This document shows, piece after piece, positions 56,692 to 63,593 of a stretch of 64,000 nt of DNA. Below the pieces are notes generated by a model, which was given only the letters and a program-made list of their open reading frames with translations, was not told the DNA's origin and searched no databases. Origin of the DNA: Escherichia phage ph0021; the sequence record OP557970.1; one strand, 5' to 3'. Made by a program: the position numbers and the translations under genes. Positions within the stretch are counted from its first letter, which is position 1. Every line of letters begins with the position of its first letter.

Positions 56692-57177
56692 TTAAGTATT
56701 GTAAAACATTTGATTCAATCGCTTATATTGCCGAATCTTTTGGTCAGAAAAAGAAATTTGGGTTTCAAGCCATTCAATATATTCTGCCGCAGCTTGCATC
56801 AAATTTCCTTCATAGCCATCGTTATTTTCTTGTGCAGCTAATTTAGCTAATGCGTATGGAATACGTTCACCTTGAAAATCGGCTTTAGGCTTCTGAACAA
56901 CTTGATTAGTTCTCTCTACAACTTCTTCAATTTCACCATTTTCTACTGATTCAGTATTCCACAAGCACCAATACGTAGTTGGCTTATCGTAGATGTTAAT
57001 AATCTTTCCATCAGAAAGTTCAATTTCAATAATTCCAGTATCAGGTTCTATATCATCTTCACATTCTTTTGCAAGTTCACGAACTTTAAAGACAGTACCT
57101 GCACTAAGTTCCGGCCAGTAATTACATAGCTCTTTATCAGCACGATTAATTCTAAACCACTTATCTACTGTAATCAT
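56692..57177 (-). CDS. pin: protease inhibitor Pin
   Basis: Probable start MITVDKWF giving 161 aa; position after gene 49. Confidence 0.5.
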   Translation of the reverse strand: MITVDKWFRINRADKELCNYWPELSAGTVFKVRELAKECEDDIEPDTGIIEIELSDGKIINIYDKPTTYWCLWNTESVENGEIEEVVERTNQVVQKPKADFQGERIPYALAKLAAQENNDGYEGNLMQAAAEYIEWLETQISFSDQKIRQYKRLNQMFYNT

Positions 57178-57472
57178 GTCCCATCTCCATATCAATTAAG
57201 TCATTTATTGTAGGTTCATTATATACTGTTTCTTCATCAGTGTAAACCGGTTCTTCCGGCTCTGGCTCTACAGTTTCCCATCTAGCCGCCCACCAAGGTT
57301 TAACCCCGAAGCTTATTAAGTTCTTCATAATCAATCCAGGATTCTAATCCTGATGGCAAATCAGATTCAATTTCCCAAAGAAGTTCTTCAATTTTCTGAA
57401 GACGATCTAGTTCTTCGGCTGGAATAGTAACCATTGACGGAGTTCTTGATACACTAATATCGTAAATCATAT

Positions 57473-57949: not shown

Positions 57950-58192
57950 TTATTCCTTAATTCCTAGTACTTGTTTAAAAGTCTCGTCGTAATCAAGACT
58001 TTGGCCCGTTTGTTCTTTATGTTTGTATATAATATCACTTACTTCTGATAGCATATTTTTATATGAACGAGTTAAAGCAGATTTAAGCACGCTGTATCTA
58101 TCAGGAAATTTACCATGTTCATTATAATAAGCTATTGCTAATTCACGGACTGCCTTTTCAGCAGCCTCCATATATTCTTTACGCTTGGTCAT
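57950..58192 (-). CDS. hypothetical protein
   Basis: 80 aa. Confidence 0.45.
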
Positions 58193-58194
58193 TT

Positions 58195-58584
58195 TTAATC
58201 CAAAATATTATTAGGCATTGGTTGAACACCCACAAGTTCTTTAAAGAACTCAGTAGAGTCAGGCAATTTAACCATTTCCGGAGCATGCTTACTGAATTTA
58301 TGTTTACATTGACGGCATTTATATTCAAGCTCTGGTTTACGCCAGTTAATCAATTGAACTTGTTCAGTACCGCATTCAGGGCAATTAGGAACGTTTTTAG
58401 AAGCTCTTTCACGCCGTTCAACCATAGCCATAATAGCATCCCATGCTGGAGGTTTAAAATCTAAATCGTCGCAGCCGTGAATCTTTCCACGCATTTCCAA
58501 ATCGTCTTCTTCACCAGCCATAATAATTTTAATTAGACTGGAATTACTTGAAGCTGCAATGTCTTCTAATAAACGCTTTTTCAT
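58195..58584 (-). CDS. hypothetical zinc-ribbon protein
   Basis: 129 aa, CPECG...CRQCKH. Confidence 0.5.
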
Positions 58585-59507
58585 TTCAATACCTCAATAG
58601 CATTACGTAAACCATTTGCTTTGGCGGTTAAAGCCTTAAGAACTTTAGTATGCTCTTCAATTTGTTTTTCAACTTCAATCAAACGGGCATTGAGATATTC
58701 ACGTTCTTCTTTCATAGTATCATTCCCATGATTGGGTTTTGGTGCAGATTTAAATTCACTAGGGTCCTTTAACTTAATAACAAATTTAGTTTCAAACAGT
58801 GAAAGACCATAATTCGTATTATCATCAAATGATTTAACTACATCCATATTAGATAATAACTCATGCAAATTATAAGACAAAGAACTAATAGTTTCATTGT
58901 GTTTATTAGCTTCGCGTGGTTTCATATACGGAAGATTTTTATATATCTCATGCGGAGCACAAATGATAATTGACAAATCAAATTGTCCATTCTGGGACGA
59001 TGGAGTGAATTTAGCCGTAACCCAGTCTTTTACATTCACATTAATAGTACGATTATCACCATGACAAAACAGTCTACGAGAATGCTTAAAAAGCATATTC
59101 ACGTTATTATTGAATTCGTGTGAAAATTCACTGGCAAATTTTTCTTTACTATCTTTAGAAAACCATTCTTCTAAATAAGTTCTTTTCACGTCATTAATAA
59201 TATTAAATGTAACAACATTAGCATTTGATACATTAGTCTCAATGTAGCTTGGATACATAAATTTTTTAACATTATTAACAGCTATCACAGAAGATAGTAA
59301 TCGGGAACGTTTGAACCACTCGAGCAAAGAACCAAGAGAATGTGAATACGCATTTTGTGTATCTTTACAAATATGGTTTTCCCATCCAATATAGTCTAAA
59401 AAATCACGAAGAATATTATTGATTACTGCTCTGTGTCCTATCTGATAATTACGATGTTTAGTAATAAGACTGTCAAAATAATCAATATAATGTTTACGAG
59501 TTTTCAT
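58581..59507 (-). CDS. hypothetical protein with C-terminal coiled coil
   Basis: 308 aa; C-terminal about 40 aa helical heptad-like segment. Confidence 0.55.
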   Translation of the reverse strand: MKTRKHYIDYFDSLITKHRNYQIGHRAVINNILRDFLDYIGWENHICKDTQNAYSHSLGSLLEWFKRSRLLSSVIAVNNVKKFMYPSYIETNVSNANVVTFNIINDVKRTYLEEWFSKDSKEKFASEFSHEFNNNVNMLFKHSRRLFCHGDNRTINVNVKDWVTAKFTPSSQNGQFDLSIIICAPHEIYKNLPYMKPREANKHNETISSLSYNLHELLSNMDVVKSFDDNTNYGLSLFETKFVIKLKDPSEFKSAPKPNHGNDTMKEEREYLNARLIEVEKQIEEHTKVLKALTAKANGLRNAIEVLK

Positions 59508-59559
59508 GTTCTTCTCACTTGGTTAATGATTTATACTCCGAGCCATCCTTGGCTTTAAA

Positions 59560-60561
59560 TTACTTAATTAACTGTAAAGCTTGTTCCAAACGATCAAGGC
59601 GATTAACAGATTCTTCCCAAATCCTTTTAGCCTTCTCATATTCTTTCTGTGCTTTATTAGAAATTTCTAGAACTTCTTTATAAGCTTTTTCCAATGCAAT
59701 AACTTCTGGACGAATTTCTACCGGTTCAGGCGAATCATCAAGACATTCCATTAGTTCCTCAAGAGTAGTTTCTTCTTTAGGAGTATTCACAATTTCTTCG
59801 CATTTTTGTTGGTAAATTTCTTTATCAGTTAGTGAATAAGCACATTTCACTTCACGAAGACTAATTACAATTTTATATCCTTCCCAACCACCAATATTTT
59901 TGAAAGGATATGTATGAATACTTTTTACAGTTTCCATACAATCCAAAGCCGTCTCTAATTGATGAGTTATAGTGCTAGCAATTGAGAAAAATTTATTAAT
60001 ATTCTTTTGGTTAGCTTCTGGTGTAAAAAATTCGTAATTCACAAAAATAGCTACTTTATTTTTATCAAGCTCATATTCTTTTACGATAATCATATCAGAA
60101 GCCAAAGGATGAATTTGACGATAATCGCCATAACATAATTTAGAAGCTGATTTTAGAATTTGTCCTTTAAAAAGTCTGAAATTACTAATCCAACGACGAG
60201 TAAAAATATTCTTAGGGTCTTCTTTGATATTAAGATGATAAGAATTAACATCACCGAACCAATTGTATCCTATTACATCTTTGGTTCGTTTAATTTCTTT
60301 CCCAAAATTACCAAGAATATCCCGATTAACTAAATATGAAAGAAGACGAGACCCTTTAAAGATTATCTTAATATCATCTTTATCTACACGGCTAGAAATT
60401 TCACGAACTTCATGAATAAATTTACTGGAAGAAACAATACTTGCATCAATACTGCTGAGCCATTGATTGATAATAGAAAGAACAGCGTTCTGACTAGACA
60501 TGGGTTTAACTTTATCATCAATAACCCTATTGAATGATTTGATATATTCGTTGCGAGTCAT
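59560..60561 (-). CDS. hypothetical protein with C-terminal coiled coil
   Basis: Real start MTRNEYIKSF after SD GAGGAG (333 aa); track ORF N-extended. Confidence 0.55.
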   Translation of the reverse strand: MTRNEYIKSFNRVIDDKVKPMSSQNAVLSIINQWLSSIDASIVSSSKFIHEVREISSRVDKDDIKIIFKGSRLLSYLVNRDILGNFGKEIKRTKDVIGYNWFGDVNSYHLNIKEDPKNIFTRRWISNFRLFKGQILKSASKLCYGDYRQIHPLASDMIIVKEYELDKNKVAIFVNYEFFTPEANQKNINKFFSIASTITHQLETALDCMETVKSIHTYPFKNIGGWEGYKIVISLREVKCAYSLTDKEIYQQKCEEIVNTPKEETTLEELMECLDDSPEPVEIRPEVIALEKAYKEVLEISNKAQKEYEKAKRIWEESVNRLDRLEQALQLIK

Positions 60562-60589
60562 ATTAATCTCCTCAGTAGAAAGTAAGAAC

Positions 60590-60619
60590 ATTATACCACA
60601 TCCTTGTGGCAAAGTAAAC
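60590..60619 (-). promoter_or_regulatory. T4 early-type promoter (GTTTAC / TATAAT)
   Basis: GTTTAC-18nt-TATAAT with palindromic spacer CCACAAGGATGTGG. Confidence 0.65.
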
Positions 60620-61638
60620 TAGTTTAGTGCATTTAGTGCGCTGTTCAGTTTAGAACGTTGCTTTGTCAGATTTTGAACCCTTGACTGAGCTTGTTCTAAC
60701 ACCTTTTCAGCTTCTAGCACTTCATTGGTCGCTTTAACGAGTTCATCATCTACTGTCTTAAGAGACTTCTCAATCGCATCCGCGTGCCATTTTTCAACAG
60801 GTTTAAGACTCGGATTTTCAGTAGGAAGAAAATTCACTTTATTAAATTTCCATGCATCTTTATTACCTGAGCTATACATCCAAAATTTAGGATCGTTTGA
60901 TGAGCAATTAGATAAATTTAAGTTATCTTGCACTTCCTGCTTTTTCTCTTGCGGGACTTCATCCTTTCTCAAAAAATCGTATTTAAATGAAACGATCATA
61001 TCAAGTTCATACGTTGTTGTGTCTAATTTAAATCGTTCAAAACGAGGTAAAATCTTAGATTGAACAGCGGCAACAACATCCATATACTTAAATGCTTCTG
61101 TCAACTGTGATTTAAGGCATTCACAAATTGAAAGAGAATTTTTTGTATTAGGTTTAAAGCTAATTCGTGCAGTTCTATTATTTTCTTTTAATGGTCTTAC
61201 TTCCATCTGAAGAGTATAACCATCGAATTTCAGGTTCTTTAAGTTAATGTCAGAACCTTTTAATCGACTAGCCGTCGACAAAATTTGCTTTAATTGTTTA
61301 CGGAATAGAGCAATAAATCTCCATTCAATACGATAATGATTTGGATTAAAAAATCCTGTTGATAAATCAACCTTACTCTGACCAACGCCTTGAACAAATA
61401 GAGGATTTTTATAATCAATAGTTTTACAGAAATCGGTGAGCTGCTCACGAGCAGTCATTTGTGTAATATATCCCGCTTTACTAAAATGACGTAACCATTC
61501 ACTGCTATTCATATACTTAAAGTGAATGGAACTATTAACTCTATCAGGGTCTAAATTATTTTGGCACAAAAATGTCATAACATCACGAGTATAGCTGGCA
61601 TTACGAACCATATCTTCAATTTGAGAACGAGTTTTCAT
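60619..61638 (-). CDS. hypothetical protein with C-terminal coiled coil
   Basis: 339 aa. Confidence 0.55.
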   Translation of the reverse strand: MKTRSQIEDMVRNASYTRDVMTFLCQNNLDPDRVNSSIHFKYMNSSEWLRHFSKAGYITQMTAREQLTDFCKTIDYKNPLFVQGVGQSKVDLSTGFFNPNHYRIEWRFIALFRKQLKQILSTASRLKGSDINLKNLKFDGYTLQMEVRPLKENNRTARISFKPNTKNSLSICECLKSQLTEAFKYMDVVAAVQSKILPRFERFKLDTTTYELDMIVSFKYDFLRKDEVPQEKKQEVQDNLNLSNCSSNDPKFWMYSSGNKDAWKFNKVNFLPTENPSLKPVEKWHADAIEKSLKTVDDELVKATNEVLEAEKVLEQAQSRVQNLTKQRSKLNSALNALN

Positions 61639-61646
61639 GGTGTTCC

Positions 61647-62558
61647 TTAAGATTTAAGTAAATCAACGATTTTAATTAATTTTTCACGCTCAGATTTAGC
61701 TTTACTACTCAATCCAGATAGTCTGAAAATTTCATCATCATATTGTTGAATAGAAATATTCAGCTCTTCAATCTGTTTATTAAAATAATCAATTTGTTCA
61801 GAATGTTTTTCGTTACTACGAACTGGTACAGGTTTTGTAGGCAATTTAGTTGAACTGGATTCATCCGGGCGATAAATTAAAATACAATTTGAACCAATCG
61901 GGCATTTAGCACCAGACACATATTCTAGTGTTCCAGCTTCTTTTAAAACTTCAAAAGCTAAACAGAGATGATGACCCATATTGACATAATCTGTAGAGTG
62001 AGCTCTGATATAATAATCATCTCCACGAGTACTAAATTTAAAGCATTTAAGGTCTTCTGTATTATTAGTTTTAAAAATCATTTGTTTATCTAGACCTTTA
62101 GCTAATCGAGCACCTAATGCTAATAATCGTCGTTGATTTTCCCATAAATCCGCAATCATTTGATCGAATGACAATTTCGGCATTAGTCGACCATAAAGGT
62201 CATATCCTTTATTATAATTGCGAAGAATTTCACTCGCGTTAATACGAGACAACGCTCCAATTTTATTAAGGGCTTTCATGATGCGATTAGATAAACTCAT
62301 TCCAGACCCGTTTGTTCGCTGTAAATGTTTTTCTAATCCAAATCCAATATCAACTTTAAATTTATCTAAAATTTTGGCATGAACATCTCTGTCAATAACA
62401 TTCAAATCCAAAGTTGGGTTAAATCTATGAAAAAATTTATCTGGCTCTCCACGACGAAGTACAGTCCATTCATTCATCATTTTTTTATTAACTAAAGATT
62501 TAATTACTGCATTGACATTATTAATTACTACTGACATATTTTCCTCACTCAATTTCAA
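61647..62558 (-). CDS. hypothetical protein with C-terminal coiled coil
   Basis: 303 aa. Confidence 0.55.
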   Translation of the reverse strand: MKLSEENMSVVINNVNAVIKSLVNKKMMNEWTVLRRGEPDKFFHRFNPTLDLNVIDRDVHAKILDKFKVDIGFGLEKHLQRTNGSGMSLSNRIMKALNKIGALSRINASEILRNYNKGYDLYGRLMPKLSFDQMIADLWENQRRLLALGARLAKGLDKQMIFKTNNTEDLKCFKFSTRGDDYYIRAHSTDYVNMGHHLCLAFEVLKEAGTLEYVSGAKCPIGSNCILIYRPDESSSTKLPTKPVPVRSNEKHSEQIDYFNKQIEELNISIQQYDDEIFRLSGLSSKAKSEREKLIKIVDLLKS

Positions 62559-62952
62559 TTTTACTAAATACGCAGAATATAATGGAAAAGACTATATAAG
62601 CACCACACACAGATTGAACTAATACCATTCCAAAGAACCAAACAATATTATCAAACCTTGTCTGTTTTACGTCGAAAGGACGTAAACTTACAGTAATATT
62701 ATCACCTTTTTCTATTGAAGAATACATCTCCGGTGAAATATATTCGCTAAATCTATAACCGTCTTTGAGTTCATATACAGCAATAAACGATAAACTAGAC
62801 CCCTTTCCTTGAGTTCCTGTAAGGGTATTAACTACAGTAACATCATAATCTTTATAATGCATATAATCATTAATAGCATAATAACCATATGCAACTACTA
62901 CGCATAAACAGCATATCAATAAATTCAATCTTTTAATTATCAACTGTTTCAT
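62545..62952 (-). CDS. hypothetical membrane protein
   Basis: 135 aa, hydrophobic segments at both ends. Confidence 0.5.
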   Translation of the reverse strand: MKQLIIKRLNLLICCLCVVVAYGYYAINDYMHYKDYDVTVVNTLTGTQGKGSSLSFIAVYELKDGYRFSEYISPEMYSSIEKGDNITVSLRPFDVKQTRFDNIVWFFGMVLVQSVCGAYIVFSIIFCVFSKIEIE

Positions 62953-62974
62953 AATAATCTCAATTAAAAGGGCT

Positions 62975-63005
62975 TAGAACCATTATACCATCCTTGGTAT
63001 AAAGC
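62975..63005 (-). promoter_or_regulatory. candidate extended -10 promoter (TGGTATAAT)
   Basis: TATAAT with upstream TG and palindromic TATACCAAGGATGGTATA; no GTTTAC. Confidence 0.4.
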
Positions 63006-63007
63006 GG

Positions 63008-63535
63008 TTATGCGAGTACCGTCTTTAACCGTTCTTCAAACTTCCGAAGAGTATTCTGGCGTTCAGCTCTTTGCTTTTTGTAAGTTTCAATACGCTCTGA
63101 AATGAGAGTGTATCGTTCATTTACTGATTCTTTCATAAAATCAGGAATTTCACGAGAAGCTTTAATCTCATCAAATTTATCAATAACAGCTTGCTCTTCA
63201 GCAATTAAGTTATCATACATCAAAATATCTTTCTTGATGAACTCAATATCTTCTTGAGTTACACGAGATAATTTAGATGCTTTATCCTTTTTGTACTGTT
63301 CGTTAGTATCACGAGACCAGTGTAATGTACGATTTTTATTCGTATTCTTATAAATTTCTACAATACCAATCTCATCAATAATAACGATCCAATTCCAACG
63401 GGATTTGTAAATTTGTCCTCCATCAACCGTGATTTCACCTCCGATTGAGATGTCATTAAAGAACTTGCTTTGTGCTTCAGATTTAAATTTACCATCGTTG
63501 TAATTTACCAGGTTGAAAATATCTTTAGCGTTCAT
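63008..63535 (-). CDS. hypothetical protein
   Basis: 175 aa, helical C-terminus. Confidence 0.5.
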   Translation of the reverse strand: MNAKDIFNLVNYNDGKFKSEAQSKFFNDISIGGEITVDGGQIYKSRWNWIVIIDEIGIVEIYKNTNKNRTLHWSRDTNEQYKKDKASKLSRVTQEDIEFIKKDILMYDNLIAEEQAVIDKFDEIKASREIPDFMKESVNERYTLISERIETYKKQRAERQNTLRKFEERLKTVLA

Positions 63536-63563: not shown

Positions 63564-63593
63564 ATAGTACCACAGAGGAACAGTCTTGTAAAC
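63564..63593 (-). promoter_or_regulatory. T4 early-type promoter
   Basis: GTTTAC-18nt-TACTAT, leader CAACTACGGAGG. Confidence 0.65.

Follow-up and report, generated by a model that had tools for sequence, protein, structure and literature searches.

A superfamily of diverged paralogues encoded by nrdC.3, nrdC.4, nrdC.5 and nrdC.6 of a T4-like phage, with the counter-defence protein NrdC.5 as one of its members

T4 is the best-studied phage, and most of its early accessory genes are still without a function. The genes considered here lie in a 64,000 nt stretch of Escherichia phage ph0021 (sequence record OP557970.1), referred to as the window, where positions 58195–63535 of the minus strand hold the counterparts of T4 nrdC.2, nrdC.3, nrdC.4, nrdC.5, nrdC.6, nrdC.7 and nrdC.8. 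These are long-annotated T4 genes, and for nrdC.5 a counter-defence role has been published. Neither ECOR17 nor MG1655 with ECOR17 dsr1 supported plating of an evolved T4 clone that had undergone compensatory deletions, and plating of this deletion phage on cells with Dsr1 was restored when T4 nrdC.5 alone was supplied in trans (Srikant et al. 2022, eLife, PMC9391042). In Dsr1 a SIR2 NADase is joined to a TPR sensor, which according to a 2026 preprint is triggered by the phage major capsid protein; both the anti-Dsr1 phenotype and the trigger are taken here from the literature. The study of T4 NrdC.5 gives no mechanism and does not relate NrdC.5 to NrdC.3, NrdC.4 or NrdC.6. A literature search returned no paper naming nrdC.3, nrdC.6 or nrdC.7, and the only mention of nrdC.4 in it concerned one base that differs between two RB phages.

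For the way in which NrdC.5 may act, the closest functional parallel is DSAD1 of the SPbeta-group phages. DSAD1 is also a phage protein that silences a SIR2 NADase whose sensor detects a late structural protein. However, its target is DSR2 and not Dsr1 (the trigger is the tail tube for DSR2 and the major capsid protein for Dsr1), it comes from another phage group, and no homology to NrdC.5 is claimed. By this analogy NrdC.5 may bind Dsr1 directly. Nearer to the block, the T4 orthologue of nrdC.1 is reported to be anti-Septu and gene 49.2 (Gp49.2) anti-OLD. Both occupy the same early non-essential region by nrdC, their role is of the same type, and together they make the region an anti-defence island. 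However, NrdC.1 (80 amino acids (aa) here) and the product of gene 49.2 (321 nt in T4) are small and unrelated in sequence to NrdC.3–NrdC.6. NrdC.1 gave no match to the superfamily described below, either by BLASTP among the block proteins or by jackhmmer, and Gp49.2 has no counterpart in the 64-kb window.

The window belongs to a Tequatrovirus (T4-like) genome. The block is 100 % identical to ‘Pseudomonas phage PsgM02F’ (OR584013.1) and 96.7 % identical in DNA to RB51 with all 5341 bases covered, and its gene order is that of the T4 and RB51 annotations. Matches to it occur in 740 phage records, and in 462 of these the match spans at least 80 % of the block. Protein identity to T4 is 79 % for NrdC.2, 91 % for NrdC.3, 89 % for NrdC.4, 94 % for NrdC.5, 91 % for NrdC.7 and 99 % for NrdC.8, and NrdC.6 is 98 % identical to T4 NrdC.6 over 259 residues. 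With its position between nrdC.6 and nrdC.4, as in T4, and 400 bits to DUF7235, the nrdC.5 of the window is the orthologue of the anti-Dsr1 gene. The original prediction, made from the sequence alone, had recognized none of the proteins and left their function open; this has been superseded by the identities above, one of which is a published counter-defence gene. Its description of the locus was largely accurate. All seven minus-strand ORFs (open reading frames) are present at the positions given, two of the proteins (NrdC.3 and NrdC.5) start with MKTR, and of the four sizes given for the central proteins, 308, 333 and 339 aa stand; the fourth, 303 aa, is better read as 296 aa. The preferred start of nrdC.6 is the ATG at 62537, which a ribosome-binding site, GAGG, precedes by 7 nt; the alternative TTG at 62558 falls within the end of nrdC.7, and the RB51 and PsgM02F annotations use the start chosen here. 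NrdC.4 begins MTRNEY, and Dhakavirus relatives of NrdC.5 begin MNIKTRKEY. The PsgM02F record, to which the window as a whole is also 100 % identical, gives Pseudomonas coronafaciens as host; its sequence is that of an ordinary Tequatrovirus, about 96–97 % identical to Escherichia coli phages such as RB51, and the label appears doubtful.

NrdC.3, NrdC.4, NrdC.5 and NrdC.6 are diverged paralogues of one superfamily and are homologous in their globular domains too. Direct BLASTP among the four proteins gives no significant match (best expectation value (E) 0.098). Through relatives and profiles, however, the families are joined: NrdC.4 of the Gaprivervirus VR25 matches the NrdC.3 of the window at E 7e-11, HHalign links NrdC.3 with the NrdC.4 family at a probability of 97.8 %, and NrdC.4 and NrdC.5 align collinearly over 234 columns (HHalign E 9e-5). 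HHalign of the NrdC.5 family with the NrdC.6 family was not significant, and the link between these two runs only via intermediates and structure. One intermediate, P0202, matches the hidden Markov models (HMMs) of NrdC.3, NrdC.4 and NrdC.5, and five more (P0198, P0196, P0207, P0216 and P0189) match those of both NrdC.5 and NrdC.6. Each of the four proteins, used as a jackhmmer query, recovers two or more of the remaining three families, and the runs combined link all four; as a negative control, 0 of 905 unrelated ORFs of the same loci were drawn in. A query without the helix, NrdC.4(1–245), reached NrdC.3 (2e-64), NrdC.5 (7e-48) and NrdC.6 (4e-40), whereas with queries consisting of the helix only the families stayed unconnected. 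Thus, the homology is no artefact of coiled-coil composition. The original prediction had proposed a paralogous family on the strength of a repeated architecture, to be checked by pairwise and profile alignment. The pairwise comparison yields nothing, but iterative profiles, HHalign, intermediates and the helix-less controls bear the proposal out, as does the predicted fold of NrdC.5 and NrdC.6.

A MAFFT alignment of all families displays a collinear series of motifs. These include [FL]xKxGxLSxxxAxxxLxxFxK, then LLxxAxRLxxGxD, which closes a helical hairpin, LxxA[FL]xxMDxV, which lies in the helix separating the two β-hairpins, KP[IV]E where the terminal helix begins, DDE[IL] inside it, and a common C-terminal ending. 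When compared with 1.84 billion representative proteins, the superfamily profile retrieved 42 clusters at E ≤ 1e-3. About two-thirds of these are 281–364 aa long and are matched along most of their length; the remainder are short fragments and one very large protein. Every member with a named source belongs to a T4-like phage whose genome is about 170 kb in size, among them the Escherichia phages EcS1 and APCEc01, Klebsiella F48 and its relatives, and the Citrobacter phages Moon and Merlin. The superfamily is small, and its named members are from T4-like myoviruses only (Straboviridae plus Marfavirus). NrdC.10 was considered as a fifth member and rejected; it matches clamp-loader-like PHROGs and another family.

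The PHROG and Pfam libraries hold these proteins as separate families of unknown function, with the exception of NrdC.3 and NrdC.4, which share one PHROG. The ORFs match their own families at E 1e-100 to 1e-169 (phrog_1435, phrog_2351 and phrog_2257; PF23882, PF26897 and PF26899). The three Pfam accessions on relatives are precomputed database annotation, PF26899 being carried by relatives of NrdC.6. With the DUF7235 model (gathering threshold 30 bits) only NrdC.5 passes; NrdC.3 reaches 13.9 bits, in its C-terminal helix, and NrdC.4 and NrdC.6 give no match. Pfam contains no significant match beyond the DUF family, and NCBIfam gives nothing above threshold for the block proteins. A profile search of PDB sequences returned weak, non-significant coiled-coil matches at the helix only (SMC, E 0.07; keratin, E 0.4). 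Thus, no homology to a well-characterized enzyme, which the original prediction had named as evidence against its proposal, was found in Pfam, NCBIfam or the PDB.

Proteins of the superfamily are built from a basic globular domain of mixed α/β type (about 230 residues), a proline-rich disordered linker, an amphipathic helix and a conserved ending. In the AlphaFold2 model of NrdC.5 (predicted local distance difference test score (pLDDT) 69.9), helices at 104–114 and 116–126 are followed by strands at 143–148 and 156–161, a helix at 168–184, strands at 189–200 and 208–218, disorder from 228 to 279 and a single helix at 281–338 (pLDDT about 86–93). The model of NrdC.6 (pLDDT 76.1) has its elements in the same order, at 124–145, 166–179, 187–200 and 205–222, with a linker at 228–242 and helices at 243–272 and 278–295. 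A single topology is thus predicted for both proteins, in the order helix, helix, β-hairpin, helix, β-hairpin, linker and long helix. Judging by the alignments, the fold of NrdC.3 and NrdC.4 is probably the same. In a Foldseek search of viral models, the NrdC.5 model matches JS10 NrdC.6 (probability 1.0, E 1e-3), and the NrdC.5 and NrdC.6 models both match uncharacterized proteins of Pectobacterium PM2, Klebsiella Mineola and Yersinia fHe-Yen9-01. One model or the other also finds matches in T4-like phages of Erwinia, Enterobacter, Acinetobacter and Aeromonas. The columns conserved across the superfamily are mostly hydrophobic core, and no conserved polar constellation of the kind expected of an enzymatic active site is found among them. 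The hydrophobic nature of the conserved positions and the lack of an enzyme family match favour a binding protein over an enzyme. Mimicry of DNA, as by Ocr, was rejected, because the globular domains are basic and not acidic.

The C-terminal helix anticipated in the original prediction is present in the AlphaFold2 models, but it is 45–58 residues long instead of about 40. It is amphipathic and follows the proline-rich linker. With a simple heptad score (0.6–0.9), the maximum falls in this helix for NrdC.3, NrdC.5 and NrdC.6; in NrdC.4 the best window is internal (185–212), and high-scoring windows extend to the helix. The helix ends in a signature, [KN][LM]xxQRxKLxxA[IL]x[AV]LK, located 0–3 residues from the C-terminus. 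A strict pattern, [QR]-R-x-K-L-x-x-A-[ILV]-x-x-L-[KN], also 0–3 residues from the end, is found in 23 of 35 representatives, and among these R(-10) is kept in 22, L(-7) and L(0) in 21 each, and A(-4) in 19. A close variant, L..A[IL]..L[IL]K, is present in NrdC.3 and NrdC.4. The possibility that the C-terminal conservation is a by-product of a promoter abutting the stop codon was rejected, because NrdC.6 and NrdC.3 keep the motif without such a promoter: the NrdC.6 stop is directly followed by the nrdC.5 ribosome-binding site, the NrdC.3 end overlaps nrdC.2, and the motif is equally conserved in both.

The T4 reference sequence departs from this at nrdC.6. In NC_000866.4 (locus L019, 8200–8400, corresponding to 61647–61760 here) nrdC.6 is annotated with 275 aa, a 1-nt frameshift relative to the window and to other T-even phages after ‘...QIEEL’ replacing the conserved helix with ‘IFLFNNMMMKFSDYLD*’, and the intact helix is readable in another frame. 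This is either a laboratory-strain mutation, in which case it is a natural helix-less allele, or a sequencing error.

The four paralogues diverge faster than their neighbours. Between Tequatrovirus and Dhakavirus/Gaprivervirus, the neighbouring proteins NrdC.8 and NrdC.2 retain 67–70 % and 59–66 % identity, compared to about 46–52 % for NrdC.6, 38–52 % for NrdC.4 and 23–28 % for NrdC.5. NrdC.3 occurs in Tequatrovirus as two allele types that are about 61 % identical, with 87–100 % identity at the ends and 27–50 % in the centre. Copy number also varies: Tequatrovirus has four members, Mosigvirus three (NrdC.6, NrdC.5 and NrdC.3), Dhakavirus and Gaprivervirus three (NrdC.6, NrdC.5 and NrdC.4), Tegunavirus two, which are dispersed, and Marfavirus one. 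The chimaera and duplication sequences comprised Manna L005:6215–7252, P0056, P0058 and P0181. Salmonella phage Manna has two members, one of which, Manna_094, joins residues 1 to about 262 of NrdC.6 to residues 251–333 of NrdC.4 with deletion of nrdC.5. P0056 is a metagenomic hybrid of NrdC.5 joined to NrdC.3, and P0181 (metagenomic, 173 aa, on an 803-bp contig) carries an unrelated 118-aa N-terminus on the terminal helix of NrdC.5. NrdC.6 of Shigella phage Sf25 contains an internal duplication of about 82 aa. Fast family divergence, an allelic NrdC.3 centre, variable copy number and hybrids are signs of an arms race and of cassettes.

Each gene or short gene group appears, from its upstream sequence, to form a separate cassette behind its own early promoter. 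The original prediction placed two early promoters inside the block; by the T4 consensus, early-promoter-like sites were located upstream of nrdC.4, nrdC.3 (a weaker site) and nrdC.7. The nrdC.4 promoter is of the textbook T4 early type, and its first base is also the final one of the nrdC.5 stop codon; the nrdC.7 site is an extended -10 (62990–62982), and nrdC.6 and nrdC.5 come after nrdC.7 without a promoter of their own. A generic sigma-70 scan found 33 sites compared to 29.6 expected from shuffles, and thus the promoter calls rest on the T4-specific consensus and on intergenic position. Between the -35 and -10 of the elements 5′ of nrdC.3, nrdC.4 and nrdC.7 lies a hairpin, CCA-AGGA-TGG with or without extra pairs (59542–59553, 60596–60609 and 62987–62998). 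The exact 10-mer CCAAGGATGG, at 59543–59552, occurs in the window only at two intergenic sites. The hairpin element is also found 5′ of family members in the Mosigvirus SF (locus L022, 5950–5975 and 6965–6995). The elements resemble PeSL, the composite early-promoter/stem-loop cassettes of T4-type phages (Arbiol 2010; Comeau 2014), whose T4/PST consensus is TTTACW-N17-TAYWAT, in pairing a TTTAC-type promoter or extended -10 with a short hairpin. The fit is good for nrdC.4 (TTTACT-N17-TATAAT, 5-bp hairpin) and partial for nrdC.3 (TTTAAA-N18-TATAAA) and nrdC.7. However, the observed hybrids recombined inside coding sequence and not at the hairpin elements.

Table 1. Genes and promoter-like elements of the nrdC.2–nrdC.8 block (positions in the window)
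Feature	Position	Strand	Description
nrdC.2	58195..58584	-	129 aa; CPEC...CRQC; RB51 annotation; phrog_1474, E 4.6e-44
nrdC.3	58581..59507	-	308 aa; NrdC.3/NrdC.4 subfamily; phrog_1435, E 2e-100 (PHROG common with NrdC.4)
Weak early-promoter-like cassette 5′ of nrdC.3	59530..59559	-	TTTAAA, 18-nt spacer with hairpin GCCA-AGGA-TGGC, TATAAA
nrdC.4	59560..60561	-	333 aa; superfamily member; phrog_1435, E 2.8e-164
T4-type early promoter 5′ of nrdC.4	60590..60618	-	GTTTAC-N17-TGgTATAAT; embedded hairpin CCACA-AGGA-TGTGG; PeSL-like
nrdC.5	60619..61638	-	339 aa; Pfam DUF7235 (PF23882), 400.1 bits, E 9.5e-120; T4 anti-Dsr1 orthologue
nrdC.6	61647..62537	-	296 aa; most divergent superfamily member; phrog_2257, E 8e-152
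nrdC.7	62545..62952	-	135 aa; hydrophobic N- and C-terminal segments; phrog_2547
Extended -10 promoter-like site 5′ of nrdC.7, nrdC.6 and nrdC.5	62982..62998	-	TGgTATAAT; hairpin ACCA-AGGA-TGGT
nrdC.8	63008..63535	-	175 aa; own C-terminal helix; conserved neighbour; phrog_2274
Early-promoter-like site 5′ of nrdC.8	63564..63592	-	TTTACA-N17-TACTAT, TG before it

The genes flanking the four paralogues agree with the description as zinc-ribbon and two-transmembrane proteins that had been proposed from the sequence. NrdC.2 carries the cysteine pairs CPEC...CRQC, and its zinc-ribbon models score below threshold (Zn_ribbon_8 26.4 bits, cut-off 34.4; TIGR02605 24.7 bits, cut-off 31.3). NrdC.7 has two hydrophobic segments by hydropathy, at about 1–27 and 101–135. 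The start of nrdC.2 and the stop of the upstream NrdC.3/NrdC.4-type gene overlap by 4 nt in Tequatrovirus (58581–58584 here), in Gaprivervirus and Dhakavirus (L003:7990–7993 and L004:8005–8008) and in Marfavirus (L021:6945–6948); the Mosigvirus SF has a 29-nt gap instead. The conserved arrangement suggests translational coupling of nrdC.2 and hints at a functional link. NrdC.2 of the window and of RB51 is 129 aa long and includes about 30 extra C-terminal residues (58195–58290), which are lacking in T4 (104 aa) and in other genera (74–103 aa). A zinc-ribbon neighbour as a universal partner was rejected, as none is found next to the Tegunavirus members (e.g. gp94).

The nrdC.7 gene is absent from the Dhakavirus and Gaprivervirus blocks, is moved downstream of nrdC.2 in Mosigvirus, and had no homologue among the Marfa ORFs tested. 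In Dhakavirus and Gaprivervirus a 71-aa hydrophobic ORF (phrog_7899) lies between the NrdC.6 and NrdC.5 homologues (L003:5844–6059 and L004:5856–6071), and in Marfavirus a hydrophobic 90-aa ORF lies just upstream of the single family member (L021:5718–5990). NrdC.8 has a long C-terminal helix of its own, …RQNTLRKFEERLKTVLA, and is not linked to the superfamily by HHalign or jackhmmer. Sequence thus gives no support for membership of NrdC.8, the only hint being one weak Foldseek match (the NrdC.5 model against a 175-aa protein of Klebsiella phage KPV15, E 1.6e-3). Downstream of the block, at 57161–57470 and 57950–58192, lie nrdC.1 and, at the place that 49.2 occupies in T6, small ORFs, one of which is annotated ‘antitoxin’ in the PsgM02F record.

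The block is part of the non-essential early accessory region next to nrdC in T-even phages, and its four paralogues are probably early counter-defence cassettes, NrdC.5 binding Dsr1 and the others binding other immune proteins. NrdC.5 is made early, before the capsid protein, and most likely occupies Dsr1 ahead of its trigger. Its globular domain most likely binds Dsr1 directly, and the C-terminal helix may form an oligomer that adds avidity. NrdC.3, NrdC.4 and NrdC.6 most likely act in the same way on other host immune proteins, and the fast-diverging globular domains would set the target. Several points weigh against this interpretation. The functional data concern NrdC.5 only and come from one genetic study of T4's own allele, and direct binding of NrdC.5 to Dsr1 is argued from analogy. 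The AlphaFold confidence is moderate (pLDDT 70 and 76), the models being those of NrdC.5 and NrdC.6, and the Foldseek template modelling scores (TM-scores) between families are low (0.28–0.48), partly because each model places the helix arbitrarily. The globular domains have a basic character (isoelectric point (pI) 8.8–9.5, net charge +4 to +11), which would also suit nucleic-acid binding. The extreme C-terminus is conserved more strictly than simple oligomerization or a generic coiled coil needs, and the laboratory strain of T4 may not need its frameshifted nrdC.6 copy, or the copy may be inactive there.

The alternatives fare less well. That the common architecture is a coincidence, with four unrelated ORFan genes each bearing a helical tail, would agree with the absence of significant pairwise BLASTP matches, with the non-significant HHalign of the NrdC.5 and NrdC.6 families and with the three separate Pfam accessions on relatives. 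It is contradicted already by the transitive links via intermediates with negative controls, by an alignment that is collinear over several motifs, and by a common predicted topology with reciprocal Foldseek cross-matches, and is very improbable. The related helix and terminal signature in all members would be expected if the paralogues hetero-oligomerized through their C-terminal helices into one machine with NrdC.2 and NrdC.7. The adjacency and early expression of the genes, the 4-nt coupling of nrdC.2 kept in four genera, and P0181, in which the NrdC.5 helix carries an unrelated N-terminus as if it were a docking module, are consistent with such a machine. However, obligate co-occurrence of the genes is not seen across genera: copy number ranges from one in Marfavirus through two in Manna and, dispersed, in Tegunavirus and three in Mosigvirus and Dhakavirus to four, other genera lack nrdC.7 or carry it elsewhere, Tegunavirus gp94 has no zinc-ribbon neighbour, and nrdC.2 alone keeps its place by an NrdC.3/NrdC.4-type gene. 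The promoters are separate as well. Sufficiency of nrdC.5 alone in trans against Dsr1 points the same way, but the text leaves the extent of the deletion unstated and this point is not conclusive. A single machine is therefore unlikely, and the multi-component system with zinc-ribbon and membrane partners put forward in the original prediction is mostly unsupported.

A role in early host takeover, with a basic domain on a coiled-coil stalk binding nucleic acid and the Dsr1 rescue being indirect through a delayed or masked trigger, would account for the charge of the globular domains and for early transcription, and the text consulted of Srikant et al. (2022) reports no direct Dsr1 interaction. 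However, the very rapid divergence of the globular domain and its allelic variation are typical of an arms-race binder and not of a recognizer of conserved nucleic acid, and the genes are non-essential and are lost at no cost on laboratory hosts (Srikant et al. 2022, PMC9391042); this explanation is of low probability. It is also conceivable, if rather doubtful, that the superfamily is a plug-and-play anti-immunity scaffold, in which an exchangeable, fast-evolving globular ‘warhead’ selects the immune sensor, while the invariant motif of the terminal helix, QRxKLxxAIxxLK, serves all members for docking or assembly. The paralogues may then co-assemble into an inhibitor of several specificities, or may tether the immune proteins they capture to some host or phage factor that they have in common. 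Such a scaffold would fit the natural hybrids NrdC.6::NrdC.4 and NrdC.5::NrdC.3 and the unrelated N-terminus on the NrdC.5 helix. If it were true, the paralogues would each lead to a different E. coli defence system, and these may include systems not yet known.

What is new is the union of all four proteins in a single superfamily restricted to T4-like phages, together with the conserved motif at the C-terminus and the domain map. As paralogues of the known counter-defence protein NrdC.5, NrdC.3, NrdC.4 and NrdC.6 become testable candidate inhibitors of bacterial immunity, and the three ‘hypothetical proteins’ concerned occur in hundreds of T-even phages of the therapeutic type. The domain map, with its variable globular domain, linker and conserved terminal helix, guides the design of such tests. 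The family also accounts for the high variability of this region between otherwise near-identical phages, and thereby bears on the prediction of host range.

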